Positions 1,495 to 63,719 of a stretch of DNA of 64,000 nt are shown one piece after another. Position 1 is the first letter of the stretch; every line of letters starts with the position of its first letter. Made by a program: the position numbers and the translations under genes. Origin of the DNA: Candidatus Poribacteria bacterium (lineage in GTDB: Bacteria > Poribacteria > WGA-4E > PCPOR2b); contig OZ244042.1 in NCBI GenBank assembly GCA_965215015.1, positions 416,001-480,000 on the forward strand, given 5' to 3'. The notes beneath the pieces are model-generated. The model was not told the DNA's origin and searched no databases. It saw nothing but the letters and a program-made list of their open reading frames with translations.

Positions 1495-2520
1495 TTATAA
1501 CTGAATTTCTTGATAGATGTTTTGGCATGGATTTTCGTCCACGAACAACACCCGCCGGGGCTGTACCATCCCAATCATCGAATATTCCGTATGCGAGTCA
1601 TCAGGCCCACCGTGACGACAAATACTTGGGGAACCGTGATGACGCAAAATCCTTTTCATATCCACCAGACTGTAGTCGGACAACTCAGAGAGACTTTGTT
1701 CAAGAAAATGTTGTCTTGCTTTGGCGTTGCATTTGCCGCTTTCGGTGCGACGATCAGCATCTGCCAGAGTCGGAAGTTGGTAGTAGTTGACACAGTTCAT
1801 GTGACGTGCCTCCGGTGCTGGATGGCGTACCTGTATCATGGGACATGGTGCTTCGATGGAACACATCGCACCATTCGCGTCTACGCAGACATGGCTGTAA
1901 CCTTTGCCGCGTGTTGGGAGTTGGGACAGCCGACGAACAAATTCCGATGTCGTCCGGCTCTGCATCAGACACTCGTAAGCCCACAGGCGTATCGGGACGA
2001 AGTCATCGCTTTGTTGAAAAACACTTCCAACGGAGGAGTGTCCCACCGCTACACCTTCAGCGTTCATCCCATCGGTTGTCGCAACCATGCCGCAGAAGGT
2101 AAAGCTTATCATAGGAATCGCGTCGTTTCGGTGGATAACTCGCGCACACGCCGAACGTCGTGTGTCTTTGGCAAGCCCATCGTTGTTCTTGCCCCAGAGA
2201 GGCCCGTCCGACCCGTCGTTAAATACGATGTTCGTGCACCCCTCATCAACCACTAATTCATTGGCGTACATCGGGAGATTCAGTTGGAAAATAGCATCGA
2301 GGGAGATGTCTGCCCCGGATGCCGTTCCTTCAATTTCCGCGAGAACCGCTGGTAGATGGGTTTTCAATGTCTCCAAAAAACGTGGAAACCGCTGCCCCCA
2401 AACAGTACTGTCTATGTTTAGGGGAAAACGAGAAAGGTGCTCCCGGATTTCTTCACGCAACGCTTCGCCGGTGAGAGCACCAATTTCGCGGGGTGAGCCT
2501 GAGACTTCAATGACTTTCAT
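1495..2520 (-). CDS. C45-family autoproteolytic acyltransferase/peptidase (Ntn hydrolase)
   Basis: EGCTNI nucleophile-Cys site, GKNND, DGMNAEGVAVG; N-terminal GSPREIG motif. Confidence 0.8.
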   Translation of the reverse strand: MKVIEVSGSPREIGALTGEALREEIREHLSRFPLNIDSTVWGQRFPRFLETLKTHLPAVLAEIEGTASGADISLDAIFQLNLPMYANELVVDEGCTNIVFNDGSDGPLWGKNNDGLAKDTRRSACARVIHRNDAIPMISFTFCGMVATTDGMNAEGVAVGHSSVGSVFQQSDDFVPIRLWAYECLMQSRTTSEFVRRLSQLPTRGKGYSHVCVDANGAMCSIEAPCPMIQVRHPAPEARHMNCVNYYQLPTLADADRRTESGKCNAKARQHFLEQSLSELSDYSLVDMKRILRHHGSPSICRHGGPDDSHTEYSMIGMVQPRRVLFVDENPCQNIYQEIQL

Positions 2521-2738
2521 GATATATCCTTAAGATGAAGCATTGGACTAAAAAACCTCGCTCTTTCTGCTGTGATGTACTAGTACGGAGACGGATGCTG
2601 CAGCGCAGAGAGGTATGGACCGTATTCCACGATAAGTTCTACCTCCTCCACTTTAAGTGGGCTTACCAATCCTTCGCGTCAGTCTCTTTTCCTTTGGAGA
2701 TGCTGCTTTATCATTACGGATTTTTTAAAATGAACACC

Positions 2739-2767
2739 ATCGTAGCAAAATTTCCCCTCAATGTCAA
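2739..2767 (-). promoter_or_regulatory. Putative sigma-70 promoter for the C45/PhyH genes
   Basis: Minus strand TTGACA-17 nt-TACGAT with an extended -10 TG. Confidence 0.55.
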
Positions 2768-2853
2768 CGGTAAAGCGAGAAGTATGAGACGAGCAGGAGA
2801 TGCTTAAACCCCTTCCCTCTCAAGTGCGTCAAATAGCTGAAGCCGCTCGGTTT

Positions 2854-2891
2854 AATATACCTATTTGGTTCAAATATACCTATTTGGTTCA
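2854..2891. repeat. Perfect 19-bp tandem duplication
   Basis: aatatacctatttggttca twice; the second copy overlaps the left end of the MITE at 2886. Confidence 0.85.
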
Positions 2892-3047
2892 TGTGAAAAG
2901 AAGGTGTAGAGCAAAGATACCCGGAACATAGCGCAACACACTTGGTATTTTCAATTCACCAAACACCAGAGTCCAACACGATTGGTATTTGTCCCCGAGT
3001 TTTTTCGGAAAAACTCGGGGGCTTTGCACCATTTCTTAACATGAGCT
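2886..3047. mobile_element. MITE-like element, long form of GGYTCATGTTAA family
   Basis: GGTTCATGTGAAAAG / TTTCTTAACATGAGCT ends; flanks acctattt and ccctattt; interior is the reverse complement of copies at 48328 and 50054. Confidence 0.75.
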
Positions 3048-3310
3048 CCCTATTTTTTTGCAATAAGTAGATAGGGGCTTTTCTCTGAGCTCAACGCAAA
3101 ATCGCAAAGACCCAAGGCAAGACAAATGAAAGTGTGGAAGCAGGGAAGATTGGGGGTTTTTGATAGCCTTCCTGTCTTGCCTTTGCTCTCAAGCGTTTTA
3201 TTAAGAGCCAGTAACTACTTATTCCCTTTTTTACTAAAACAGCACTCACAAAAATGTCCAAGAATCGGCAAACGATTAGGCTATACCCGTCGGGAAGGGA
3301 CTTTGTTTAT

Positions 3311-4114
3311 ATGAATAGAAATCAAACCCCAACATCCACCTCGAATCTTTCGATCTTACACATTCTGGTGGTCTTATTTTCCTTTTTCATCGTTCAACTT
3401 CCACTATTTGCGGAAAGCCATGCCACGGATATTGATGTTAAAGCCATCGTCAAACGAATGGACGAGCTCTATCGTAGCGAAACAAGCCAGACCAACATGG
3501 AGATGCAAATTGTTACGCCACACTGGGAAAGAACCTTGGCTTTGGAGGTCTGGACAAAGGGGATGGACAGGACCTTCATCTTGATAACATCGCCCAAAAA
3601 AGAGAAAGGTGTTGCGACCTTGCGGATTGGGAACGAAATGTGGAACTATCTCCCCAAAACCAACAAGGTGATGAAGGTGCCACCGTCAATGATGATGGGA
3701 TCTTGGATGGGCTCTGATTTTACGAATGACGACCTCGTCAAAGAGTCATCAATGCTCGACGATTATACCTACGAACTAATCACACCGGCGGAGGCCCTAC
3801 CTGACCATCTCTACATTCAGTTGCTACCAAAGGAGGATTCACCGATTGTCTGGGGCAAACTTATTGTTGCTATCCGAGTAAGTGATCAGCTTCCGGTTTG
3901 GCAGCATTTCTACGACGAAACGGGGCGTCTCACGCGAGTCATGAACTTCAAAGAGATTAAATCGTTTGACGGAAAGATTATACCCTCGATGATGGAGATG
4001 ATACCCCAAAACAAAGAAGGACACAAAACCGTTGTACGGTTTGTGGATGCCGAATTTGACAAAGATATTGACGAAAAAGTCTTCACGCGCCGAAACCTTC
4101 AGAAGCGAAGATGA
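3311..4114 (+). CDS. Outer-membrane lipoprotein-sorting (LolA-like) periplasmic protein
   Basis: Signal-peptide-like N-terminus; SPKKEKGVATL, WNYLP, SWMGSDFTNDDL motifs; first gene of the ABC cassette. Start moved from 3254 to ATG 3311. Confidence 0.8.
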   Translation: MNRNQTPTSTSNLSILHILVVLFSFFIVQLPLFAESHATDIDVKAIVKRMDELYRSETSQTNMEMQIVTPHWERTLALEVWTKGMDRTFILITSPKKEKGVATLRIGNEMWNYLPKTNKVMKVPPSMMMGSWMGSDFTNDDLVKESSMLDDYTYELITPAEALPDHLYIQLLPKEDSPIVWGKLIVAIRVSDQLPVWQHFYDETGRLTRVMNFKEIKSFDGKIIPSMMEMIPQNKEGHKTVVRFVDAEFDKDIDEKVFTRRNLQKRR

Positions 4115-4214
4115 GTCAAAGGCAAGGACGCGTGGATATAAGTGAGGTTGATGGAGATTCACTGTTTCAGTGGCTTATAGGCTTATTTACGTCTCACGCA
4201 TTACGTTTTACGCT

Positions 4215-5432
4215 ATGATGACACTTAAAATTGCATTCCGCAACATCTTCCGTCAGAAACGACGCACAATACTAACCGCACTCGCAATGATTGTCGGATT
4301 TACACTCTCGTCCGTATTCATCGGCTGGTCCGACGGTGCCTATTCCGACATTATCGAGATGTTTACGCAGAACCGCATCGGGCATATTCAGGTGCATCGC
4401 GGAGGCTATCTTGATAAACCGTCGCTCTACAAAACGATGGCTGATTACGAGTCTATCGGGGAAACCATCGGGAGCATAAAAGGGGTAGAGGCGTGGACAC
4501 CGCGAGTATACTCGGCGGGACTTGGCTCGGTCGACGAAAAGAGCACCACCCTACAAATCATCGGTGTCGAGGTCGGACGTGAAGTCAAAGCGACTCGATT
4601 TGATAAGAAAATCATTGATGGAAGGGAGCTCTCAGCGCAACCGGCGCGTGAAGCCGTTTTAGGCAAGGGACTCGCGAGAATCTTTGCTGCAACGGTCGGC
4701 GACGAAATTGTGATTGTCTCACAGGGTGCCGATGGCTCGATTGCTAACGAATTGTATGAGATTGTTGGCATCGCAGAAAGCGGTGACGACACCACAGATC
4801 GGATGGCGTGTTATCTCCATATCAGAGACGCGCAGGAGTTGCTTGTCCTTGAAGGGCGCGCCCACGAAATTGTTGTAATTGTCTCAAACATCAATCACGT
4901 CCACAAAATCACGAAGGCAATTGAAACCGCTCTTGATGATTCAACGCTTGATGTTGCCCCTTGGCAGGTGGTCGCCAAGGCTTTCTATCGAGCAATGCAG
5001 GCGGACAAGCAGGGCGATGCTATTGGACGAATTATCATCATGCTCATCGTCGCTATCGGTGTATTGAATACGGTCCTGATGTCGGTGCTGGAGAGAACGG
5101 GCGAATACGGTGTATTGAAGGCAGTCGGAACGAAACCGGGGCAAATCTTCTGGTTGGTGATTTGCGAAGTACTCATCATCGCCCTTGGCAGCATTGTCGT
5201 CGGTGCTATATTTGGTGTTTCGATCAACTATCTGCTGTCGATATATGGCATCACCATGCCACAGGAATTTACTTACGGCGGCATCAAATTTCAAACCATG
5301 TACGCCGAAGTCAACACACGAAGTCTCATTGTTCCCGCGATTACCGTCATACTGTCGGCAGCGATAGTCAGTCTATTTCCCGCGCTAAAGGCGGCACGAA
5401 TTCTGCCAGCTAGGGCAATGCGAACCCATTGA
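4215..5432 (+). CDS. ABC transporter permease, MacB/FtsX (LolC/E-like)
   Basis: AFRNIFRQKRRTILT, SVLERTGEYGVLKAVG, C-terminal PALKAARILPARAMR. Confidence 0.9.
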   Translation: MMTLKIAFRNIFRQKRRTILTALAMIVGFTLSSVFIGWSDGAYSDIIEMFTQNRIGHIQVHRGGYLDKPSLYKTMADYESIGETIGSIKGVEAWTPRVYSAGLGSVDEKSTTLQIIGVEVGREVKATRFDKKIIDGRELSAQPAREAVLGKGLARIFAATVGDEIVIVSQGADGSIANELYEIVGIAESGDDTTDRMACYLHIRDAQELLVLEGRAHEIVVIVSNINHVHKITKAIETALDDSTLDVAPWQVVAKAFYRAMQADKQGDAIGRIIIMLIVAIGVLNTVLMSVLERTGEYGVLKAVGTKPGQIFWLVICEVLIIALGSIVVGAIFGVSINYLLSIYGITMPQEFTYGGIKFQTMYAEVNTRSLIVPAITVILSAAIVSLFPALKAARILPARAMRTH

Positions 5433-50053: not shown

Positions 50054-50319
50054 GGCTCATGTTAAGAAATTGTGCAACAGCCCCCGAGTTTTTTTCGGAA
50101 AAATGCGGGGGCAAACACCAACCGTGTTGGACTCTGGTGTTTGGTGAATTGAGCCAAGACGTTTGCGCGATGTTTCGGGTATCTTTGCACTCTCTTTTTT
50201 TAGAAGCCCCATAGATCGGGTTTCCTAGCTAGACTGCATCAATGAACTAATGAACCCATGAACAAATGGTTTTCACGTTTCATGCTCTTCGCGTTTTGCA
50301 CTTTCTTTTTACGTCAGTC
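50054..50319. mobile_element. MITE-like element (long form plus octamer-repeat module)
   Basis: GGCTCATGTTAAGAAA left end; 50054-50210 matches 48328-48481; 50241-50319 matches 1417-1487. Confidence 0.7.
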
Positions 50320-50324
50320 TAATT

Positions 50325-51671
50325 CTAATATCCCAAGCGTTTTGAGACCGCATCAATCGTTTCCTTCAGCACCTCAACAGTCTGGAGCACCTGTGATTCG
50401 TTGATTGTGAATGGAGGACTGATGGCGATGTGATCGCCAGCCACGCCATCAATCAGTCCGGGGGCACCGGGCATTATCAGAATCCCTTTGTCAAAAGCCA
50501 AATCCACAACGGTGGAGGTCACGCCTTTTGAAACATCGAACGGCGTTCCTTTCTCTTTGTCGGCAACAAATTCGATACCAATCAGCAACCCTTTCCCACG
50601 AATATTCCCGACAATTGGCGATGCTTGAAGGGGTTTCAGTTTTTCAAGCATCAAATCCCCCATCCGTGCACACTGTGTAACGAGATCATGCTTTTCGATA
50701 TAATTCTGCACGGCGAGTGCGGTGGCGCATGATAGGGGATTCCCGCCATAGGTATGTCCATGCGTAAAGTTAGTTGATTTTTTATAAATGGCGTCGTAGA
50801 CTCTTTCGTGGGCAATCGTTGCAGCGATAGGCGTATAACCGCTGCTCAATCCCTTTCCTGTGGTCATAATGTCGGGTACGACATCCCAATGCTCGATGGC
50901 AAAGTTGACGCCGGTGCGCCCGAATCCGGTTACCACCTCATCGGTAATCATCAGAATGTTGTGACGATTGCAAACCTCCCGAATGGTAGGGTAATAGTCC
51001 GGTGGAGGGACCACCCCCGCTGCCGACGTGCCGAGAATCGGTTCAGCAATAAACGCTGAGATATACTCACTGCCTTCCTGATAAATCACGCGCTCAAGTT
51101 CGTCTGCACAGGTGAGATGACAATCAGGATATTCCTGTCCGTAAGGACATCGATAGCAATAAGGAGCTGGAATGTGCGGAAAATCGAGTAGATAGGGAAC
51201 ATAGTCGTCCCGCCATGAGGTCCGGCCGGACATCGATAGTGCACCGATTGTATTGCCGTGCCAGCTTTGCCACCGCGAAATCACCTTGTACTTTTTCGGA
51301 TTACCGGTTTCGAGATGATATTTTCTCGCCATTTTCATCGCGGACTCTGTCGCCTCCGAACCGCCGGAGACGAAAAACACTTTCGAGAGTCCCTCCGGTG
51401 CCATGTCGTCAATTTTTTGTGCGAGATCGATTTGCGCTTGTGTCAGGAAGCGGCTGTATGTGAAACAGACTTGACTCGCTTGTTTGCCCATGACATCGGC
51501 AATCTCTTTGATACCGTGACCGATGCTTACCACATGCACCCCGGCGCACGCATCGAGATAGCGTTTGCCTTCTGTATCAAATAGATAGACCCCCTCGCCG
51601 TGAGAAATCTGTTGCCATTGCTGCTTAAACGTTCTATGAAAAATATGATCGTCGCTCTGGACTTCAGCCAT
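50325..51671 (-). CDS. Class-III PLP aminotransferase
   Basis: SGGSEATE, SWHGNT, FIAEPI, DEVVTGFGRTG, PDIMTTGKGL, HGHTY. Confidence 0.93.
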   Translation of the reverse strand: MAEVQSDDHIFHRTFKQQWQQISHGEGVYLFDTEGKRYLDACAGVHVVSIGHGIKEIADVMGKQASQVCFTYSRFLTQAQIDLAQKIDDMAPEGLSKVFFVSGGSEATESAMKMARKYHLETGNPKKYKVISRWQSWHGNTIGALSMSGRTSWRDDYVPYLLDFPHIPAPYCYRCPYGQEYPDCHLTCADELERVIYQEGSEYISAFIAEPILGTSAAGVVPPPDYYPTIREVCNRHNILMITDEVVTGFGRTGVNFAIEHWDVVPDIMTTGKGLSSGYTPIAATIAHERVYDAIYKKSTNFTHGHTYGGNPLSCATALAVQNYIEKHDLVTQCARMGDLMLEKLKPLQASPIVGNIRGKGLLIGIEFVADKEKGTPFDVSKGVTSTVVDLAFDKGILIMPGAPGLIDGVAGDHIAISPPFTINESQVLQTVEVLKETIDAVSKRLGY

Positions 51672-51727
51672 TCATTTATCTCCTTATGTTATGTTAGTTA
51701 ATTCTCCAAGACCGACCGGCAGCGGAG

Positions 51728-52570
51728 CTATTTATCGTCCGTCCTCTGGCGTTTCGGTGGAGTTGCGGAGACACCTTCCATACCGCCACTAACCCTGAGT
51801 ACTTCGCCCGTAATCCAAGACGCTTGAGAGCTACATAGAAAGGCAACACCACGAGCGATGTCGGTTGGCTCACCCCATCGCCCCAACGGGATGGCACTAC
51901 GGATGCGCTCAATCATCTCGCCCTCAGTGAGGTTAAGGGTTTGGCAGCGTTGCGCCATGTTTCTCCTGTTAAACTCAGTGTAAACTGGGCCCGGACTCAC
52001 GGCATTTACTCGCACACCATAAGCTGCTAACTCCAGTGCCAATGTTTTGGTCAAGCTAATTATGCCTGCTTTTGCTACGTTGTACGCTGCAACCAGAGCC
52101 GCCGGATTTTGGCCATTGATTGAGGCGACATTAACAATGCAGCCGTATTCCTGACGCTCCATAATCCCACCGGCAGTGCGGCAGCAATAAAATGCCCCGG
52201 TCAAGGTGGCGTTTAACACACGCTCCCATTCTTCATCGCTTAGCTCAACAATGGGGGTGACCTTCTGACCAACGCCGGCGTTATTGACCAAGATGTCCAA
52301 CCGTCCATGTTCATTGACTACCCTTTCAAAAAGGGCCGTTACCTCAGTGCTATCAGTGATATCCAAGTGAGCCGCATGTACCTTCAAACCGTCAGTTCGC
52401 AAGTTGTCGGCTTCCGTCTCAGCCTTCTCCAGTTGCAAATCAGCGATGATTGTCGTTGCGCCCTCGCGGGCAAGTTGCTCGGCAATACCTAGCCCCAAAC
52501 CCTGCGCCGCGCCGGTTACCACTGCAATTGAGCCATTGAGGCTTTGTAAAGCAATTCCATCATTGTTCAT
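51728..52570 (-). CDS. Short-chain dehydrogenase/reductase (FabG-like)
   Basis: TGAAQGLG, NNAGV, YNVAK, VNAVSPG, IPLGRWG, ITGEVLRVSGG. Confidence 0.92.
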   Translation of the reverse strand: MNNDGIALQSLNGSIAVVTGAAQGLGLGIAEQLAREGATTIIADLQLEKAETEADNLRTDGLKVHAAHLDITDSTEVTALFERVVNEHGRLDILVNNAGVGQKVTPIVELSDEEWERVLNATLTGAFYCCRTAGGIMERQEYGCIVNVASINGQNPAALVAAYNVAKAGIISLTKTLALELAAYGVRVNAVSPGPVYTEFNRRNMAQRCQTLNLTEGEMIERIRSAIPLGRWGEPTDIARGVAFLCSSQASWITGEVLRVSGGMEGVSATPPKRQRTDDK

Positions 52571-52757
52571 ACGTATACCTCACTTCTTCAAAAATAAAGA
52601 AACCGTCCTAATCTCCGAGGGTTGCCAATCCCACGGTGCGGGTTGTGGTATCTTCAATGTAAGTGTTGAGGACAACCTCCAGTCCCCTGGTGAGACAGGC
52701 TAACGATCGCTCGGCAAATCACTCGTCCTTCAGTGGAGACGACCATCTTTTCCTCTG

Positions 52758-54746
52758 TCAAATTTCATTTTCACTGCTCTTTCGTTGAGCAAATTCATTG
52801 CTATATTTGTACATGTACCACGATGCAATACTCCGGAATGGCTTCCATTGATTAGCAATCTCCTGCATCTCTTCAATATTATTAATAGCAATGTCATACA
52901 CCTGACTGATGGTCCTTCTAAGAGCTAGGTCCTGTATGGGAAATACATCTTGCCTGGCTAGACTAAATATCAAAAACATATTTACAGTCCAATCGCCTAT
53001 TCCTTTGACAGTTTTAAGCACGGATCGAATTTGATCCTCGGTCATAGAAGACATTTTGTCAAGATCTATATCCCCTCGTACAATCCTTTCAGACAGATCA
53101 GAAATGTATGAGTATTTACGTCGCGAAACTCCTGTTGCTAAAATCTTGTCTGGTGGTTGCTTTATGAAACGATGGGGAGTAACAGGCGATGAATTAAACA
53201 AAGACCGGAATCTATGAAATATTGTGTCTGCTGCCTGTCGAGATAACTGCTGGTTAATTATCGAACCTACTAAAAATTCAAAATGAAGCGTTTGGGACTG
53301 AAGATTGCACGGTCCAACCTTGTTTATAATTTTTCCCAAGTGCTTGTCTCGCTTATGAAGGTGATAACAAATACCACTGAAGTTAGAAGATTCATTAATC
53401 TGTTGAGTTGGTATATAAGCATTCTTAAGTAAGCCTGATGTCTGAAGCCAATCATTAACTATCTTCTGAACTTCAACCTTCTTGTTTTTTGTCGCTGAAA
53501 TGGAAAAATCGACAATTGAGTTATGAGGTGGATTACTTGCGCTTGAGGCTTTCTGAGTATCAAAAAACAGAGAGTCAAAAAGCGTTGGTTGATTGGCTGA
53601 ATCCTCCTCTTTTTTGCCCCCTTTTACATAATCACCCATGGGCTTGAGCCCGTGAGAGAAACGACCTAGGATTGTTGTAATCGCTTCAACGCTGTTATCA
53701 ATCCCTATCCAGTTTCGTTGTAGTTCATCAGCTACAGCCAGGGTCGTTCCAGATCCTGCAAAACAATCTAAAACTAAATCTCCAGGATGAGACGACGCTT
53801 GGATTATTCTTCGGAGTAAATCTGGATTCTTCTCTGTGGGGTAGCCGGTGATTTTAATGTTCTGGTTGTGTGCATCTTTGAAGTCTAGCCAAATATCCTG
53901 CACACCGGCTCCTGGATGCTGATCGAGATAAACCTTGCGACGAGGGTTCCCGTTCTTAGACCAAAAAATTTCACCACCTGCATCCATTTTATCAAGTGTT
54001 GCTGGTGGATACTGCCAGTGTTTGCCCGGTGGGGGCATCATTCCTCGCCAAGGTTTTCCCGTTTCTCCATTTCTAGTCCCTGGTGCATGAATGGGAACCT
54101 TCATGAAACGGCGACCAGTTTCAGGCTCAACATAATGATATTCTTTTGCACCGTCTTCGGATAAAGGTTCAACTGGGCGATTCCAGATGTACTTGTCAGA
54201 CTTTGTGTAAAACAAGATCAAGTCAGCAATATTACCGTATGCCTTGCGTGTATAATTTTTTGGATTACACTTCTTTCGAACAATCAAATTGCGGTAATTT
54301 GAAGAACCAAATATTTCATCCATTGTCAATTTCATCTCGAAAATCATCTTATCGTCAAGATGAAGGTAGATCGATCCTTGTGGTGATAGTAGCTCGTGTA
54401 GAAGTATTAGCCTCTCCCGGAGGAATTCGATGAAATCACTGCCTGTCAATGAGTCGGAATATGCTTTTTTTTGTTTCCTAGAAACGAAAGTACTCTGCGT
54501 TGCGAAAGGCGGATCTATGTAAATGAGTGAAACCCTACCTTTCAATTTCTTTTTTTTCAATAGATGTTGAAGTAGGAGTAGGTTGTCACCGAAATAGAGC
54601 TCATTCCTAGATGGAGCAGTATGCAGCGTGCAGACTGCGGGAGATGGCGTTTCCAAAATTGAGGATATGGGCTTCTTTTTTTCGTATTCAAGACGTACGG
54701 AAGTAGTTTTTTCGTTTTTTGACATCTTTGGGATACCTATAGCCAT
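52758..54746 (-). CDS. Beta-class N6/N4 DNA methyltransferase fused to AlkA-like DNA-3-methyladenine glycosylase
   Basis: YIDPPF (motif IV) precedes YPTEK and VLDCFAGSGTT (motif I). C-terminal ~200 aa: SIINQQLSRQAA, HhH LKTVKGIGDWT, VFPIQDLAL, WKPFRS. Confidence 0.88.
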   Translation of the reverse strand: MAIGIPKMSKNEKTTSVRLEYEKKKPISSILETPSPAVCTLHTAPSRNELYFGDNLLLLQHLLKKKKLKGRVSLIYIDPPFATQSTFVSRKQKKAYSDSLTGSDFIEFLRERLILLHELLSPQGSIYLHLDDKMIFEMKLTMDEIFGSSNYRNLIVRKKCNPKNYTRKAYGNIADLILFYTKSDKYIWNRPVEPLSEDGAKEYHYVEPETGRRFMKVPIHAPGTRNGETGKPWRGMMPPPGKHWQYPPATLDKMDAGGEIFWSKNGNPRRKVYLDQHPGAGVQDIWLDFKDAHNQNIKITGYPTEKNPDLLRRIIQASSHPGDLVLDCFAGSGTTLAVADELQRNWIGIDNSVEAITTILGRFSHGLKPMGDYVKGGKKEEDSANQPTLFDSLFFDTQKASSASNPPHNSIVDFSISATKNKKVEVQKIVNDWLQTSGLLKNAYIPTQQINESSNFSGICYHLHKRDKHLGKIINKVGPCNLQSQTLHFEFLVGSIINQQLSRQAADTIFHRFRSLFNSSPVTPHRFIKQPPDKILATGVSRRKYSYISDLSERIVRGDIDLDKMSSMTEDQIRSVLKTVKGIGDWTVNMFLIFSLARQDVFPIQDLALRRTISQVYDIAINNIEEMQEIANQWKPFRSIASWYMYKYSNEFAQRKSSENEI

Positions 54747-54755
54747 AATTCACCC

Positions 54756-55175
54756 TTACGATAATAACCAGTCAAGTGTGATTCTTTCTGTGATCATTCG
54801 TAAAGTAACAACCTTTACAAGGCCAGGCCATGAATCTTCTATGTATGCATAGTCTGTCCACATTGACCCGAGTAAAAGACCGGGACCATCATTTAAAAAA
54901 ATAACTTTAATTGCTAAACTTTGCTGGTGTGCATAGCCTAGCACTTCATTAGCACAATCTCGGTATTGACCTGCTCGATCGTCCTCTTGAGCTCCCCCAC
55001 GGTCGGAATCGTATCGAGCCAACCCGACTGCTACGGGTATTTCATTCTGATATAGAACAAAGTCTACTGGGCGATCTGGCTTGGGATAATCTTCAAATAT
55101 TTCGCCCAAGATTACATCTTTACCGGCTCGTTCAGGGCCAATAATATGCAAATCCCTCCCTCTGAAGTTTTTCAT
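54756..55175 (-). pseudogene. Probable type II restriction endonuclease, C-terminal part only
   Basis: RPVDFVL...ARYDSDRGGAQEDDR...FLNDGPGL; only 139 aa, in-frame TAG shortly upstream; lies 9 bp before the MTase. Confidence 0.55.
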
Positions 55176-55253
55176 TGTTATATTTTGCCCCTTTTGCTAC
55201 AATCGATCTGTTTTGAGAGGATACCATAAATAGCGATCAAAGGAGGGAATCCA

Positions 55254-55547
55254 ATGGCTACTTACATCGCGTTGGGACGCTATACACAACAAGGCATAGA
55301 GAATATTAAGGAAGGACCCGCCCGCACTAGTGCTGCTAAAAAAAACATTCAAGCCTTGGGCGGAGAATTTAAGGCGTTTTATATAGTGATGGGTCAGTAC
55401 GACTTTGTCACTATCATTGAAGCCCCAGACGATGAAACCGCAGCCAAGTTCGCGCTTGCTACCGCTTCGGAGGGCAACGTCCGCATTGAGACACTGCGTG
55501 CCTTCACGGAAGATGAATACCGGGAGATTGCTGCTTCTCTGCCTTGA
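55254..55547 (+). CDS. GYD-domain protein
   Basis: YTQQG, MGQYDFVTIIEAPDD, GNVRIETLRAF; AGGAGG RBS. Confidence 0.9.
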   Translation: MATYIALGRYTQQGIENIKEGPARTSAAKKNIQALGGEFKAFYIVMGQYDFVTIIEAPDDETAAKFALATASEGNVRIETLRAFTEDEYREIAASLP

Positions 55548-55579
55548 ACCGTTTTTAGCGCGCCTACCATATCGCACAA

Positions 55580-56140
55580 AAAATGAAACTGTATCGGATT
55601 GGTATAAACTCAAAGATGAGATAGCCAAGTTACATTATCGCATCACCTCTATCAGACGAGACACACCACAAAGCGAGTGCAGCGATTGTAAATAGTACCA
55701 AGCGAATCGGCATAGAATCTCTGAACGTAGCCGGTATGCTCAAGAATCATAAACTTGCCAAAGCATTGTCCAACGCTTCCGTGTCCTCATTTTTAGAGGT
55801 GCTCACGTATAAAGCCGAACCGATTGGCGTAAAGCTTATCGAAGTGGATACCTCTACCCCTCTAGTAATAGTAAAACTTGTTCGGCATGTGGTGGGGTAG
55901 ATAGCGACTTATCCTTGTCCGATAGGACATACCATTGCGGCACTTGCAGGCACACCTAGGACAGAGACCTCAATCTGAGAACCCTCGCCGTGGAACACAC
56001 GGAGCGGCTAAACGCTTGTGGAGATTCCGTAAGACCTCAACCGTTGAGGCACGAATCGTCGAACCAAGAAGATAGCACAGGGCAACGGCTACTGGTCAGT
56101 CTATCATAAGAATCCCAATTTAGCTTTGGGAGTACGTCAA
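55580..56140 (+). mobile_element. tnpB: IS200/IS605-family remnant: tnpB 3' pseudogene and right end
   Basis: Broken frames WYKLKDEIAKLHYRITSIRRD / HHKASAAIV...IGIESLNVAGMLKNHKLAKALS...LTYKAE / YPSS-SKTCSACG...LSDRTYHCGTC..*DRD; 3' AACGCTTGTGGAGA..GTAAGAC and GAATCCC...GGGAGTACGTCAA. Confidence 0.85.
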
Positions 56141-56167
56141 AATTCCGCCCCATACCCCATAATAGTG

Positions 56168-57100
56168 TCAATCTTCTTCTAACCGATATAACTCCTTCAG
56201 GCGGCGTATGTACTCCCTATCCCTTTTTTCAACTGCCTCATCGAACTTATTCGGATCGACAAACCACGGTTTTCCTTCCGCCATACGCTCGTTAATCTTC
56301 TCAGCGGCTTCGTCAAGCGATTCGGATCCTCTCCGTCTCCTAGTTCGTATATCTGCCGGCCATTTCCAGATACCCGCTAGGTCATAGTGAAGAAACGGAC
56401 CTTCATGGGGCATGCGAAAACCGAAGGTCGCCTGGATGCCGAGTTCAATCTCTTCAGCAGTCGCCACGTCCTCTGCCCACAATCGCGTTGCTTCACGCCC
56501 CATAGCACCCTGTATCCGGTTCAGCAGATAGCCCGGCAACTCTTTAAGCACCCGGATTGGTACTTTCTTAACCTTTTTCATCAGGTCGTAGATGATGCTG
56601 TATGTTTCATCACTCGTTCCGGGCCCCTTAGCTACCTCAACCCCAGGCACGATATGCGGCGGCGCAAAGTAGTGTGTTAAACCGATCTTGTCCTGCCGCT
56701 TGACACCTGCGCCGATATCGGTCATCACAAATCCGGAGGTGTTGCTGACGATAATGCTATGCGGTGGACACAGTTGATCCAGTGTCTTAAAGAGAACCTG
56801 CTTGTCTTTTAACCGTTCGATAATTACTTCGGTAATGAAATCACTCTGGGCCACTTCCCCCAAATCGGTGGTGGTTGTGATCCGGCTGAGCGTGTTATCG
56901 GCTTCCGCTTGGGTTATCAATTCCTCCTCGACAAAGAGATCCATAGCAGACCTGATATTTTTCATGGACTGCCGTAGAAGTACATCACTGAGATCCCTGA
57001 TAATGGTGGGGTATCCGCCTAGTGCAAAGTTTATGGCGATGCCGAACCCCATGGTCCCACCCCCAACAACTCCTACCTTTTTAATGTCCGCTAACTCCAT
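56168..57100 (-). CDS. 3-hydroxyacyl-CoA dehydrogenase family protein
   Basis: GVVGGGTMGFGIA, EVIIERL, SNTS, THYFAPP, PGYLLNRIQ. Confidence 0.9.
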   Translation of the reverse strand: MELADIKKVGVVGGGTMGFGIAINFALGGYPTIIRDLSDVLLRQSMKNIRSAMDLFVEEELITQAEADNTLSRITTTTDLGEVAQSDFITEVIIERLKDKQVLFKTLDQLCPPHSIIVSNTSGFVMTDIGAGVKRQDKIGLTHYFAPPHIVPGVEVAKGPGTSDETYSIIYDLMKKVKKVPIRVLKELPGYLLNRIQGAMGREATRLWAEDVATAEEIELGIQATFGFRMPHEGPFLHYDLAGIWKWPADIRTRRRRGSESLDEAAEKINERMAEGKPWFVDPNKFDEAVEKRDREYIRRLKELYRLEED

Positions 57101-59534: not shown

Positions 59535-62500
59535 ATGACAGACTACCAACAGCTATATCAAGAGTTCAAACGCTCCGTCAGCCGCTTAATGCAACTTTAC
59601 AGTGAAAAAACGCATTTTGTTGATGAACTGGTTCAGAATGCCGAGGACAGCAGGAGTCTCTGCATGGAATTGCGGTTGGGTGAGAAGGAGTTGTTTGTTT
59701 GGAACGACGGGAACCAGTTTAGCGAAGAGGATGTGTCCAACATCTGTTCGATAGGTTTAAGTAATAAAGACCTGACCCAAATAGGCACTTTTGGCATCGG
59801 CTTCATAGCTGTTCATAACTACACGGATCTCCCGGAAATCTACTCTGGTAATAAACGTTTCCGTATCCGAGATTACAGAAAGCGAGAGGATATTGACGAT
59901 GTCGATTCAAAGGTTGCGAAGCAAATAGATAAAGGCAGAACAGTCTTTCGCCTACCTTTCAAAGATCGCCTACGTCAGAAAGACATTGCATATCTAAAAA
60001 AAGGGCTTTGCAATTTAGAAAAACGATCCCTGCTATTCTTCCGTCATCTTGAAACGATTCAATGGCATGATGAACACAACGGACAAACGGGTTCTTATTC
60101 CTGTCGCCGTTGTCCTCATGATAAAATTCAGAATGCACTCCAAGTTGAGTTGATAGGATCTATTAACGGTGAAAATCAACTGTCGGAAACATTCTTAGTT
60201 TTTTGCAGAGAGGTTCGACCGCCACAAGAAGTGATTGATGAACTTTTGCAGCAAGCAGAAGACGACGAAGAACGAAACCGTATTCAACGATCAGCGAATA
60301 AACAACAGCCGGTTGAAGTCGCATTCAAGCTATGTAACGGTCAAATCACCGGGTTGGACGGTTGTGTCTTGTTTGCTTACCTTCCTACGCAAAGAGAAAC
60401 ACACCTGCGATTTCTCATTCAGGGACGTTATCAGACTACACCCGCGCGTGATAATATTCCAATTGATAATCCATGGAATAAATGGTTGGTACGGGAAACC
60501 ACCAACTTTCTGCCTGAAGTATTGGAACAGTTGAAAGCGGGTGGATTGCTTGAACCGATGTTCTTTGATATATTACCTCTGGAAGGCGACGGTGTGCCGT
60601 CGGCGTTCCTTCCCATCGCCGAGGCTCTGAGAACGGCTATGAAGGAAAGACCGTTTATCCCAACTCAGGACGGAGGGTATGCGAAAGCGGAGAACGTGCA
60701 CGATCCCCATGCCGAATCTCTGAGAAAATTGGTTAAAAGCAGTTGGCTGAATCCGGGCAGCAGTTGGTTGCATCCCGACATACGAGATACGGAAAGGTTT
60801 CGCCGGTGCTTAAAGGTGATGCGCGAAGCAGGTGTAAGAGAAGTAAGCGTCAGTCAAGTGTTGGGTTGGCTTGAAAATCAAACTCCCGGCTGGTTCGAGG
60901 ATAAGCCGAAAGAATGGCTACTTTCGCTGTATGCGTATTTGAAGGAACAACGGTCCGAGCGGGAACGGATAAAAAAACTCCCATTGGTTCGACTTGAAAA
61001 TGGAAGGCATGTAGTATGTGTGGATGATCAACCAGTGTTCCTTCCACCAGATACAGACGAAGACCGTGAAGAAATCGTACCCTTCATCAAGGAGTTACCT
61101 ATCCTGATGTCAGCCCTACTCGAAGGAGATGAACACAACAACATCGAACACTTCTTGAAAACTCTGGGGGTTAGGGAGTTGCGCCCGGAAGAGCTGATTC
61201 GCGAATGGATTATCCCTCAATATTCTCGATCTGACACCCCCAAACCTGCTGTGGAGGAAAACCGCCTGCATCTGCGTTATTTGTGCAAGGTTTGGCATAG
61301 GGGTGGTTGGCGCACAACAGTAGAAATCAGCAAAACTCCGATTCTGTGGGCTTATGATGGCGTTCAACGAGAAGATTATGGCTTTGTAGCCCCCTGCAAG
61401 GCCTATCTGCCACAAGCCTATACAAGCAATACCGATCTGGAAACTTACTTTTCTGTGTGTGATAATGTTTGGTCCGCATGGTTCGTAGACGATGGTTATC
61501 TGGAGACCAATTCCGATTCGGAAGACTGGCTCCAGTTTTTGAAAAGGCTTGGTGCTAAGGATGCACCGCGATTTCTCAAGCAATACCCCGACACCTACGA
61601 CGAAGAATTTGAGGGGCGGAATATTGAAAGGGAACGTAGCACGGGAGAGGAAACTATTGAAGAATATTATTTTGATGGTGTGTACTATTTTTTCGATCAC
61701 CAGGAATCGCATCTTTCACAAGTCCTCTGGCGTTTGTTAGTCAAAGCTCTGCCATCAGAACAAGGAAATCGAGATGTTCTCTTTCAAGGTATCTATCGTT
61801 GGTTCTATTATAGATACAATCAAAAACGCTTTGATGCTCGTTTTTATCTTCTTCTGAAGGCCTATGAGGACTGGCTCCCTGACGATCAAGGCAGCCTTCG
61901 TTCTCCTTCCAAGTGTTTCGCGCCAACTTCTGAAAACCGTAGGGTGTTAGGGGATAGCGTGGCCTACCTGCACCCTGACCTCGATATCAGCGAGGACAAT
62001 GAACCCGCGCGATGGTTAGCTAAGAAGTTGGGGATACACCTGAATGCAAATACGGAAAGTGTACTCAACTACCTGCAAAGATTAAGCAATACAACAGTAA
62101 GTGTTCAGGACATTGAACCCCTCTATCGATTCCTTGCACAACAGGATGCACGGCCACGCGAAAAATTTGAGGAAGAGCCCCTTATCTTTACTCCTTGCCC
62201 AGAACCGCGCTGGTGGCGAACAGATCAGGTGTTTTGGGAGGATGAGAGCGCGGTTTTCGGCAATAGTCGTGGCTATCTCAAAGCACGTTATGCGGAAACG
62301 CTAAAACCATTTTTCATCGCTTTGGGAGTATCGGAACGAGCTTCTTCCTTAGATTATGTCCGTGGTATCCGAGAGGTTACATCTGCAGCACAAGCGAGCG
62401 ATGCGGAGGTTCATAAGCGTGTTAAAGTTCTTTACAGTCGTTTATGGAGCGCGCTGCAAGAAGACGACAGCTTGCTAGAAGACGAAAATTGGCGGAAAGA

Positions 62501-63719
62501 GTGGGAACAAACACGCGAAAGCAGATGTTGGCTTGGAAAGAAGGGAAGTGAATGGGATTTTTTCTACCGAGGTGAATTGGTTTGGAGTGATCACGGTTAT
62601 CGCGCTAAGTTTTTTAAGGACAAAATTCCATTTTGGGAGTTTGATGATTTATTGGAACTGGCTACTAAGTATCTGGCGGTAGAGGGTTGCTCTCAGATCA
62701 AAGTCGAATTTCACCCTAGCGGTGAGAGTAAAAAAGATGAGCGTTGGTCAGAGAAGGTACGAAACCTGCTTCCGCACATTCATGACTTCCTCAAATCACC
62801 GGAGCTGTATGATCGAAAATATGAGGAAACTGGATTTACCCAAGTTTTAGATCGGTTGTCGGTTCGGTTGGTTGAAGAACTAAGGACGACATATACATTA
62901 AAAGGAATTTCCGTTTCTGACCCGGATCCACGTCCGAGTTTTTTGGACGCGACTAATCGGGAAGCGACGCTCTGGTTGGGGTTAAAGGCGGACGAAGATG
63001 AATACGCCGAGCTTATCAGCGATGCCTTAGCGGATTATTTTCGTAGCGAGAGGTTAAGCCAATTCGCCGAGAACTTATTAAACAACAAAGATCAAAAGAA
63101 GGTACTTGCCCGCTGGGAACGGAAGGGGCTCCGAATAGAGGTATCACCACCAGAGGAGGCTTCCAAAGAAGATGAAGTAAAACCAATAGAAACTTTTGAT
63201 GAGAATACTATAAGCGGAACCGATGATTCAGTGGGGGATGAATGTGAACGTTATCCAACTCCCCCACAGTCTGAAGGGATTATAGATACACGTGGAGGCC
63301 ATTGGGGTGGTACGTCCGAAGGGAGAGCAGGAGGCGGGCATGGCAGGGGCGGTGGAGGCGGAGAGGGGCAACCACATTGGAAGTTGAAGGAATGCCTTGC
63401 AAATAATCCCTCTCAACTTGGTGTAGGTTTGACATTGATTGAGCCTGAGTATCAGTTCGAGTCACGGGATAGGGTGGATATCTTACTAGAGGATAGTGCT
63501 GGAAAGCCCGTCACTGTCGAGGTAGAAACACATATTCCATCCGGAAACTACGTTGGGGTCTGGCAAGCCGTGAAGTATAAGCATCTTGCTGCGGTTGAAT
63601 ATCAACTACCGTGTGAGCAAGTGCACAGCATACTTGCAGCACCAGAAATTCCTGATGATGTTAAAGCGAAATGTAGAGAATTAGGAATCGAAGCTAGAGA
63701 GGTGACTATGCCTCCATAG
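59535..63719 (+). CDS. Sacsin/NO-VEIN-type GHKL ATPase with C-terminal NucS-like PD-(D/E)xK nuclease
   Basis: ELVQNAED, WNDG, IGTFGIGF, TVFRLP, FAYLPT, TTPARDNI...WNKWL; after a Gly-rich linker EYQFESRDRVDILLED...VEVE...QAVKY. Confidence 0.82.
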   Translation: MTDYQQLYQEFKRSVSRLMQLYSEKTHFVDELVQNAEDSRSLCMELRLGEKELFVWNDGNQFSEEDVSNICSIGLSNKDLTQIGTFGIGFIAVHNYTDLPEIYSGNKRFRIRDYRKREDIDDVDSKVAKQIDKGRTVFRLPFKDRLRQKDIAYLKKGLCNLEKRSLLFFRHLETIQWHDEHNGQTGSYSCRRCPHDKIQNALQVELIGSINGENQLSETFLVFCREVRPPQEVIDELLQQAEDDEERNRIQRSANKQQPVEVAFKLCNGQITGLDGCVLFAYLPTQRETHLRFLIQGRYQTTPARDNIPIDNPWNKWLVRETTNFLPEVLEQLKAGGLLEPMFFDILPLEGDGVPSAFLPIAEALRTAMKERPFIPTQDGGYAKAENVHDPHAESLRKLVKSSWLNPGSSWLHPDIRDTERFRRCLKVMREAGVREVSVSQVLGWLENQTPGWFEDKPKEWLLSLYAYLKEQRSERERIKKLPLVRLENGRHVVCVDDQPVFLPPDTDEDREEIVPFIKELPILMSALLEGDEHNNIEHFLKTLGVRELRPEELIREWIIPQYSRSDTPKPAVEENRLHLRYLCKVWHRGGWRTTVEISKTPILWAYDGVQREDYGFVAPCKAYLPQAYTSNTDLETYFSVCDNVWSAWFVDDGYLETNSDSEDWLQFLKRLGAKDAPRFLKQYPDTYDEEFEGRNIERERSTGEETIEEYYFDGVYYFFDHQESHLSQVLWRLLVKALPSEQGNRDVLFQGIYRWFYYRYNQKRFDARFYLLLKAYEDWLPDDQGSLRSPSKCFAPTSENRRVLGDSVAYLHPDLDISEDNEPARWLAKKLGIHLNANTESVLNYLQRLSNTTVSVQDIEPLYRFLAQQDARPREKFEEEPLIFTPCPEPRWWRTDQVFWEDESAVFGNSRGYLKARYAETLKPFFIALGVSERASSLDYVRGIREVTSAAQASDAEVHKRVKVLYSRLWSALQEDDSLLEDENWRKEWEQTRESRCWLGKKGSEWDFFYRGELVWSDHGYRAKFFKDKIPFWEFDDLLELATKYLAVEGCSQIKVEFHPSGESKKDERWSEKVRNLLPHIHDFLKSPELYDRKYEETGFTQVLDRLSVRLVEELRTTYTLKGISVSDPDPRPSFLDATNREATLWLGLKADEDEYAELISDALADYFRSERLSQFAENLLNNKDQKKVLARWERKGLRIEVSPPEEASKEDEVKPIETFDENTISGTDDSVGDECERYPTPPQSEGIIDTRGGHWGGTSEGRAGGGHGRGGGGGEGQPHWKLKECLANNPSQLGVGLTLIEPEYQFESRDRVDILLEDSAGKPVTVEVETHIPSGNYVGVWQAVKYKHLAAVEYQLPCEQVHSILAAPEIPDDVKAKCRELGIEAREVTMPP

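Follow-up and report, generated by a model that had tools for sequence, protein, structure and literature searches.

The stretch of DNA analyzed here (the window) comprises 64,000 nucleotides of a Candidatus Poribacteria bacterium (contig OZ244042.1, positions 416,001 to 480,000 of the forward strand) and carries a gene in which a DNA methyltransferase and a Mag-type DNA glycosylase are joined in one reading frame. We consider this protein probably to be the modification subunit of a BstEII/EcaI-type Type II restriction-modification (RM) system, with a tethered alkylpurine repair module that serves the methylase. As far as the literature was searched, what is new is a widespread, previously undescribed repair-domain fusion, whereas the cassette around it is an ordinary Type II RM cassette of a known kind.

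The fused gene and its two domains

The gene and its parts are located in the window as follows.

52758 to 54746, minus strand: methyltransferase-glycosylase fusion gene, a single open reading frame (ORF) of 662 amino acids (aa) with both Pfam domains over their cut-offs
53652 to 54746, minus strand: beta-class N6_N4 DNA methyltransferase core (residues 1–365), with DPPF at 54504–54515 and FAGSGTT at 53742–53762
53382 to 53651, minus strand: connector (residues 366–455), composed of a disordered loop (368–406), a strand-helix element (415–437) and a tether (441–453)
52761 to 53381, minus strand: Mag/AlkA-type HhH-GPD glycosylase domain (residues 456–662), with QQLS at 53241–53252, GIGDWT at 52986–53003 and FPIQD at 52929–52943

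The uninterrupted 662-aa frame that an original prediction had described from the nucleotide sequence alone was recovered as this ORF. A Pfam search assigned N6_N4_Mtase to residues 72–358 (E 8e-48, 163.7 bits against a cut-off of 26.7) and HhH-GPD to residues 493–634 (E 5e-12, 46.4 bits against a cut-off of 26.2). The same prediction of a full beta-class amino-methyltransferase agrees with the Pfam score and with the order of the motifs, DPPF (residues 78–81) lying N-terminal to FAGSGTT (residues 329–335), and the PADLOC profile MTase_II (PDLC03354) matches residues 8–398 (E 3e-140). In the glycosylase half, QQLS occupies residues 499–502, the helix-hairpin-helix (HhH) motif GIGDWT residues 582–587, and the Asp of FPIQD is D606; the HhH motif and the catalytic Asp are thus retained, as predicted. 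The Asp in DPPF is typical of adenine-type methylases, and the database source names of fusion relatives include "adenine-specific DNA-methyltransferase"; the target base of the methylase is probably N6-adenine.

An assembly artefact or a one-off fusion was ruled out by contigs from X2 and X7 and by recurrence in relatives. The contig of run X2, which may be the source sample, covers 52500–55700 with 0 differences. Contigs from a separate study (X7) cover 53202–53579, reaching into the connector, and 54522–55454, again with 0 differences to the window. A stop or frameshift in the connector, which would have separated the two domains, was looked for and none was present, the X7 contig showing no differences there. 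Contigs from RNA libraries (X19 and X20, 90–95% identity) span much of 52803–55154; they originate from relatives, possibly reflect DNA carry-over and, as contigs, do not demonstrate transcription. No sigma-70-like site was found on the minus strand of 52500–55700, and the four sites found were all on the plus strand (shuffle mean 6.5), a comparison that is uninformative for this phylum.

An AlphaFold model of the fusion was built from a 118-sequence alignment, and the connector was profiled by the model's per-residue confidence score (pLDDT) and by DSSP. The mean pLDDT was 74 and the predicted template-modeling score (pTM) was 0.49; both domains were modeled confidently, with a pLDDT of ~90 over residues 456–655. 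The Foldseek matches of the methylase half were beta-class and type III Mod methylases (6k0w, 4zcf, 7dsu, 1g60 and 6pbd). Between the domains, the model is disordered at 368–406 and 441–453 and contains a small structured strand-helix at 415–437. Unfused methylase relatives align up to approximately residue 434 of the fusion, and their own ends lie at ~434–470. Because these relatives reach ~434 and because 415–437 is structured, most of the ~90-aa linker proposed in the original prediction is a C-terminal extension conserved in the methylase family; what stands of the linker is the disordered loop and a true inter-domain tether, which the model places at about residues 441–453 and which would be short.

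The sequence matches of the glycosylase domain in the PDB were led by 2h56 (E 9e-26), followed by Schizosaccharomyces pombe Mag2 (4b21) and Mag1 (3s6i) and Deinococcus radiodurans AlkA2 (2yg8), and D606 aligned with the Asp of all four. Foldseek comparison of the model gave Mag2 with a template-modeling (TM) score of 0.86 and a root-mean-square deviation (rmsd) of 2.1 Å, and Mag1 with a TM score of 0.83 and an rmsd of 2.4 Å. The equivalog for E. coli-type AlkA (NCBIfam PRK10308) scored 31 bits against a cut-off of 229, with a match limited to residues 523–652, and so the domain is not of the E. coli AlkA type. The description of the domain as a complete AlkA-type enzyme therefore has to be replaced: it is of the short Mag type, ~200 aa long and without the AlkA N-terminal domain.

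Across 47 outer standalone Mag proteins, 15 residues are universal, and the 26 fused sequences kept all of them (D467, Q499, Q500, K544, G582, G584, W586, T587, M590, R598, D606, R610, W634, P636 and Y644). Substitutions specific to the fused clade were found at E452, Y461, F491, R514, F517, F527, R543, Y545, R574, G595 and Y646. A search of 1.84 billion representatives returned 168 relatives of the glycosylase domain at E up to 1e-30, and the closest standalone bacterial Mag relatives were 42–49% identical to it. Among the best 150 representatives, the only methylase fusions were P0092 and the truncated P0193. Fusion to the DNA-binding domain of O6-alkylguanine-DNA alkyltransferase (Ogt, PF01035) was found in 5 of the 15 longer relatives checked (P0286, P0290, P0306, P0319 and P0325), with the Mag-type domain C-terminal. 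A further relative, P0259, joins a kinase-like region to a Mag-type domain. Since the universal residues are kept and the relatives are Mag and Ogt-Mag proteins, the lineage is one of alkylation repair with no sign of inactivation, and the domain is apparently a catalytically intact, active repair-type alkylpurine enzyme.

The domain might instead be a non-catalytic binder of lesions or abasic sites that adds DNA affinity to the methylase, in the manner of S. pombe Mag2, a protein that is not known to be active. Mag2 is indeed among the best structural and sequence matches, and the Ser of QQLS is shared with Mag2, 2h56 and D. radiodurans AlkA2, whereas Mag1 has His. However, D. radiodurans AlkA2 has the same Ser and is an active enzyme, and the catalytic Asp is invariant in 118 fusion sequences. 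We regard a purely binding role as highly improbable.

Recurrence of the fusion among bacteria

In a search of 5.8 billion proteins, the best 120 clusters were inspected for both Pfam domains, and 118 of them contained both, at 51–92% identity and lengths of 640–690 aa. The cluster names were generic, such as "Modification methylase EcaI (modular protein)". When one genome per species was scanned, 529 relatives were confirmed, and the best 80 loci were retained. The glycosylase lay directly behind the methylase in 28 of the 80. The fused locus L027 is N-truncated, and the glycosylase of L067 is a separate overlapping ORF. The fused loci carry 12 phylum labels (Poribacteria, Nitrospirota, Myxococcota, Acidobacteriota, Kiritimatiellota, Lentisphaerota, Pseudomonadota, Thermodesulfobacteriota, Tectimicrobiota, Planctomycetota, Armatimonadota and Aerophobota), which are those of metagenome-assembled genomes and may include binning errors. 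The architecture first noticed in the window is thus shared by relatives, and the concern that it might be a one-off, with relatives carrying the domains as separate genes, is answered by this recurrence.

Conservation was examined at two depths. DPPF, GSGT, GIGxWT and D606 were invariant in 23 sequences. In 118 sequences, P79, P80, G331–T334, G582, W586, D606, W634 and P636 were invariant, and D78, F81, I583, G584, T587, W643 and Y644 were conserved at ≥90%. A full-text literature search, with subscription journals, REBASE and InterPro outside its scope, found no description of a methylase-glycosylase fusion. The earlier remark that the fusion is not a described RM architecture therefore holds within the literature searched, and the proteins themselves are in public databases under generic names.

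The methylase is regularly accompanied by an endonuclease gene (R). A homolog of the ORF upstream of the fusion gene lies directly upstream of the methylase (M) in 74 of the 80 loci, usually with a length of 289–300 aa, and the order is R then M with ~10 bp between them. The 289-aa R protein of the syntenic Poribacteria locus L001 matches BstEII (PDB 9ibq/9ic8) with an E value of 9e-87, residues 5–287 aligning with residues 3–285. ORFs of ≥280 aa lie upstream of 18 of the 29 fused genes, a count that includes the window, and of 39 of the 52 unfused ones; contig ends truncate one of the fused and two of the unfused loci, and short ORFs in metagenome-assembled genomes are possibly sequencing errors.

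Two genomes show further arrangements. One Kiritimatiellae metagenome-assembled genome (G045) holds two fused genes, L005 and L055, each with an upstream R, and the methylase tree places them in its two deep branches. In an Entotheonella genome (G058), a standalone 215-aa Mag-like gene (L018, 32–595) lies ~5–7 kb from a fused gene and is 37–38% identical to the glycosylase domain of the window.

Role and history of the fused domain

In the reading we consider probable, the methylase would scan DNA and methylate GGTNACC sites, thereby protecting them, while the tethered glycosylase would excise alkylated purines in the DNA on which the methylase rides. The excised lesions would be of the 3-methyladenine (3mA)/7-methylguanine type, possibly also 1-methyladenine (1mA) or hypoxanthine. 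Two rationales can be proposed: the glycosylase would remove lesions made by the methylase or by its bound S-adenosylmethionine, or it would remove lesions that block protective methylation and thus expose the site to the cell's own endonuclease. The original prediction had offered two roles, a self-proofreading methylase and a glycosylase turned against modified foreign DNA. The evidence leans to a repair-type alkylpurine glycosylase and away from such a weapon, and we infer that the methylase may be self-proofreading.

A more specific proposal is that the Mag domain guards the methylase's own work by clearing, in cis, wrong-atom alkylation (1mA/3mA) or site-blocking lesions in GGTNACC, and this we put forward only tentatively. 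If true, it would make the fusion a covalent prokaryotic counterpart of DNMT-ALKB2 and the first sign of an alkylation cost for amino-methylases. A precedent for methylases whose alkylation damage selects for a linked repair enzyme comes from a preprint (10.64898/2026.01.24.701492), in which C5-cytosine methylases are described as making 3-methylcytosine (3mC) and co-occurring with ALKB2, and M.SssI as sensitizing E. coli to methyl methanesulfonate.

Several observations weigh against a repair module that serves the methylase. In the literature consulted, off-target alkylation is documented only for C5-cytosine methylases with AlkB-type repair, and not for N6-adenine methylases or for glycosylases. 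The activities of the methylase and glycosylase domains are alike predicted, and the AlphaFold model predicts no fixed inter-domain arrangement or interface. The ratio of nonsynonymous to synonymous substitution rates (dN/dS), calculated against L001 and L002, was 0.06–0.07 for the methylase, 0.54–0.62 for the connector and 0.31–0.33 for the glycosylase, so that the value of the glycosylase is five times that of the methylase; taken by itself, the glycosylase value nevertheless counts toward an active domain. In the genus of the window, 16 of 20 genomes are without any Mag-type gene. The glycosylase domain is absent from 52 of the 80 loci. The methylase tree (80 rows, 28 fused; L027 was too short to be included) shows methylases with and without the domain interspersed, with 15 parsimony changes, at least 10 of them forced by well-supported branches, and the approximately unbiased (AU) test rejects one fused clade (log-likelihood difference 938, p 2.7e-5). 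A single fused methylase clade is ruled out by these two results, and because of the intermixing the glycosylase appears as an accessory that was repeatedly lost.

The glycosylase tree (98 rows, 29 fused), made by a quick method and with long branches flagged, places 26 fused rows in one supported 48-row clade alongside 22 standalone proteins; the positions of L051 and L062 are not resolved on this tree, and L067 clusters with a different standalone clade. Standalone Mag genes of 206–247 aa occur in other families of the order to which the window belongs, at 36–45% identity to the window domain. Five standalone genes of 206–243 aa (L090–L094, in G023, G032, G038, G035 and G029) nest inside the fused-domain clade and lie among unrelated genes, and no RM remnant was found within ~1.5 kb in 6 of 6 loci checked (L090–L095). 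They may be domains released from the fusion or its source lineage. Because standalone copies nest in the fused clade away from RM genes, the domain evidently works without the methylase, a further point against a function bound to it.

There are also signs of loss. The unfused locus L042 retains a 38-aa glycosylase remnant (E 5e-7), and two metagenome contigs, judged by their matching lengths, may bear the fusion in a split or degraded state. In L067 (5261–7978, Proteobacteria metagenome-assembled genome), an R of 241 aa and an M of 489 aa are followed by a third ORF, Mag-like and 220 aa long, which lies in a different frame from M and shares 35 nt with the end of that gene; the Mag domain of this ORF belongs to a different Mag clade. 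This locus is possibly a frameshift-split fusion or an independent recruitment. The simplest reading of these sequence comparisons would be that the fusion is old, that it was lost many times and sometimes released the domain as a free gene, and that one association (L067) perhaps arose independently. On these unrooted trees, repeated fusion is an alternative to fusion followed by loss, and gains may have occurred.

In cassettes without the domain, no downstream substitute for it was seen. Near the 52 unfused loci, a Mag-like gene was found only in L052, on the opposite strand and ~2.6 kb off. Among the downstream neighbors of unfused cassettes, 53 of 73 were singletons, and a Pfam search of 60 of the 73 showed no recurring repair family, the genes being housekeeping and defence genes (Mrr, HsdR, GmrSD, AbiEii-like and PIN). 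A separate downstream glycosylase or repair gene was thus sought as a candidate and not found among the 52 loci. Given the frequent loss, the 52 of 80 loci without the domain and the lack of a replacement repair gene downstream, any coupling would be non-essential, which also speaks against the proposed service to the methylase.

We also considered whether the domain supplies an enzyme that the cell otherwise lacks. The window genome has four other HhH-GPD genes, which by motif and weak BLAST matches are MutY-like, EndoIII-like (two) and Ogg-like, and a family search of this genome found no Tag, AAG or AlkC/D and no other AlkA/Mag. By sequence, the fused domain would be its only recognizable 3mA glycosylase. 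The genomes behind 50 loci comprise 27 with the fused form and 22 with the unfused form (L005 and L055 share one genome). Another 3mA glycosylase (Tag, AAG, AlkC/D or standalone Mag/AlkA) was present in 21 of the 27 fused-form and 17–18 of the 22 unfused-form genomes, in a tally where the completeness of the metagenome-assembled genomes is not known and related genomes are non-independent. A general substitution for the housekeeping 3mA glycosylase was ruled out by these numbers; since 21 of 27 fused-form genomes have another such enzyme, the fused domain is a cassette accessory and not a standard cell enzyme.

The same data bear on a different explanation, namely that a mobile RM cassette happens to carry the domain as a module for alkylation repair in general, with no mechanistic coupling to the methylase, and that its benefit to the host helps the selfish cassette or an orphan methylase to persist. 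The flexible tether without a predicted interface, the frequent loss of the domain, the standalone copies in the fused clade that function away from RM genes and the window genome without another recognizable 3mA glycosylase would all fit such hitch-hiking. Yet most fused-form genomes already have another 3mA glycosylase, and the covalent fusion is kept under 12 phylum labels at 48–92% identity. In L067, a methylase of this family is paired with a Mag domain from another clade, and all 10 of 10 longer proteins from a word-based search, which is a weak search, carry that methylase family. We therefore consider an uncoupled passenger unlikely.

A second arm of defence was also considered, in which the glycosylase would excise or sense modified phage bases that escape BstEII-type cleavage, like Brig1 or the END nucleases. 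The RM context and a Tiamat TmtA-like gene 5 kb away are in keeping with this proposal. HhH glycosylase-derived domains sense hypermodified phage DNA in END nucleases, according to PMC12191111, and DNA glycosylases in restriction are cited in an EcoSal review (PMC12707154). However, the END domains are described in PMC12191111 as being without catalytic residues, whereas the Asp and the universal Mag residues are conserved here, and the proteins most closely related to the domain are repair proteins of the ordinary standalone Mag and Ogt-Mag kinds. An endonuclease ORF of at least 280 aa is moreover kept in 18 of the 29 fused loci, so the glycosylase is no replacement for it, and a glycosylase acting in place of the endonuclease was ruled out on the same count. 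A defence role thus appears improbable.

In summary, we favor a repair module that would serve the methylase to which it is tethered. RM methylases are usually seen as harmless writers of a protective mark, and the fusion suggests that they have a DNA-damage side worth on-the-spot repair. It also offers a simple test system, since it is a single gene whose two domains can be separated, unfused relatives serve as natural controls and an isoschizomer of the endonuclease is sold commercially, and it provides a natural example of a sequence-targeted glycosylase. Even if the domain were a mere hitch-hiker, a mobile RM cassette would still have been shown to carry, shed and donate a repair domain.

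The cassette in the window and its relation to known systems

The fusion gene is part of a cassette with the following further features.

52596 to 55157, minus strand: low-GC RM cassette, an insert between an SDR gene (51728–52570) and a GYD gene (55254–55547)
54756 to 55175, minus strand: BstEII-type endonuclease gene remnant, C-terminal 139 codons, aligning to residues 139–289 of the 289-aa L001 protein
55154 to 55160, no strand assigned: junction of a 612-bp deletion, from blastn against the syntenic L001

The AT-rich block of the original prediction is confirmed by a GC content of 0.419 for 52596–55157, compared with 0.485 for the window and 0.493 for the genome (G000, 5.94 Mb in one contig, 98% complete). 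DNA comparison of 20 genomes of the genus showed the SDR and GYD flanks to be contiguous in several of them (for example G002, G004, G014 and G016), the empty sites missing positions ~2297–4858 of a query consisting of window positions 50300–57100. Because the flanks are contiguous in other genomes of the genus, the cassette is a variable low-GC insertion. It occurs in 4 of the 20 genomes, being present in G000, G008 and G012 and in part in G001; in G003 it is reduced to the last ~95 nt of the fusion gene.

The restriction-enzyme-like gene that had been noted upstream is a BstEII homolog, but only its C-terminal half of 139 aa is left, and the window contains no intact endonuclease gene. This 139-aa ORF had no Pfam, NCBIfam or PADLOC family match. 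In the blastn comparison, L001 4568–4980 matches window 55583–55160 and L001 5593–6100 matches window 55154–54647; the window is without L001 4981–5592 (612 bp), so that ~141 bp of upstream DNA and R codons 1–157 are gone. The deletion presumably took the 5' edge of the cassette and its promoter. The X7 contig 54522–55454 crosses the junction with 0 differences. The related strain in X20 leaves the window sequence at 55154, and the reverse complement of its loose end resembles, by eye, the intact R of L001 just 5' of the deletion. With the 5' half of R deleted, the fusion gene is left as an orphan in the window genome. That the fusion gene is intact after this loss could be because the genome has no other 3mA glycosylase.

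We take GGTNACC to be the site of BstEII, an assignment that concerns BstEII and not the protein described here. The genome contains 890 GGTNACC sites against 1109 expected (observed/expected 0.80), the second lowest ratio of the 64 palindromes of the form XXXNYYY (median 1.00). This avoidance fits a history of BstEII-type restriction and does not prove the specificity of this methylase. The most under-represented of these palindromes was CCTNAGG (observed 424, expected 680, observed/expected 0.62), which may point to a further restriction system of that specificity, whether a current or a former one.

Two other elements lie near the cassette. At 59535–63719 on the plus strand, a 1394-aa ORF matches Tiamat TmtA (PADLOC PDLC03972, E 2e-98), with a Sacsin-like region at its N-terminus and a NucS-like nuclease domain at its C-terminus; by this match, a second defence gene lies ~5 kb from the RM cassette. 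The ~540 bp at 55600–56142, between the GYD gene and a hydroxyacyl-CoA dehydrogenase gene, are a dispersed repeat. It has well over 100 matches at 64–76% identity among the genus's genomes, and the window genome contains three further, partial copies of it at 78–91%.

Among known systems, the cassette resembles BstEII/EcaI in that the R protein of its relatives is homologous to BstEII, the methylase fits the Type II profile and the order is R then M; the name M.EcaI used here is a database annotation, and 9ibq/9ic8 are structures of R.BstEII. It differs from them in the extra ~205-aa glycosylase domain on the methylase and, in the window, in the truncated R. The glycosylase domain resembles short Mag glycosylases (Mag1 3s6i, Mag2 4b21/4hsb, Bacillus halodurans 2h56 and AlkA2 2yg8) in fold (TM scores of 0.75–0.86, rmsd of 2.1–3.4 Å), in sequence (26–31% identity) and in its aligned HhH motif and catalytic Asp. 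Unlike them, it stands behind a DNA methyltransferase and has clade-specific substitutions, and unlike E. coli AlkA it has no AlkA N-terminal domain.

Repair functions are linked to methylated DNA in other ways as well. Ada-AlkA fusions exist, and in the Ogt-Mag fusions a Mag-type domain is likewise C-terminal in a multidomain protein acting on methylated DNA; in them it is joined to a suicide alkyltransferase, which takes methyl groups off, whereas the partner here writes them. R.PabI, Brig1 and the END nucleases share with the fusion the use of base-excision chemistry or HhH-derived domains within restriction or defence. In R.PabI, a glycosylase of another fold replaces the endonuclease, whereas the glycosylase here is joined to M and not free-standing, and most cassettes keep a conventional endonuclease. 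The HhH domains of END nucleases, as described in PMC12191111, are catalytically dead sensors fused to nucleases, whereas the Asp is retained in the sequence described here.

The repair genes vsr, linked to dcm, and mig.MthI, linked to the gene of M.MthTI, are associated with DNA methylases. In the Vsr-Dcm, Mig.MthI-M.MthTI and DNMT-ALKB2 pairs, as here, a DNA methyltransferase has a repair enzyme genetically linked to it, which presumably offsets methylation-linked damage. Those pairs involve C5-cytosine methylases, separate genes, and deamination mismatches or 3mC, whereas in the fusion described here an amino-methylase is covalently joined to an alkylpurine-type glycosylase.

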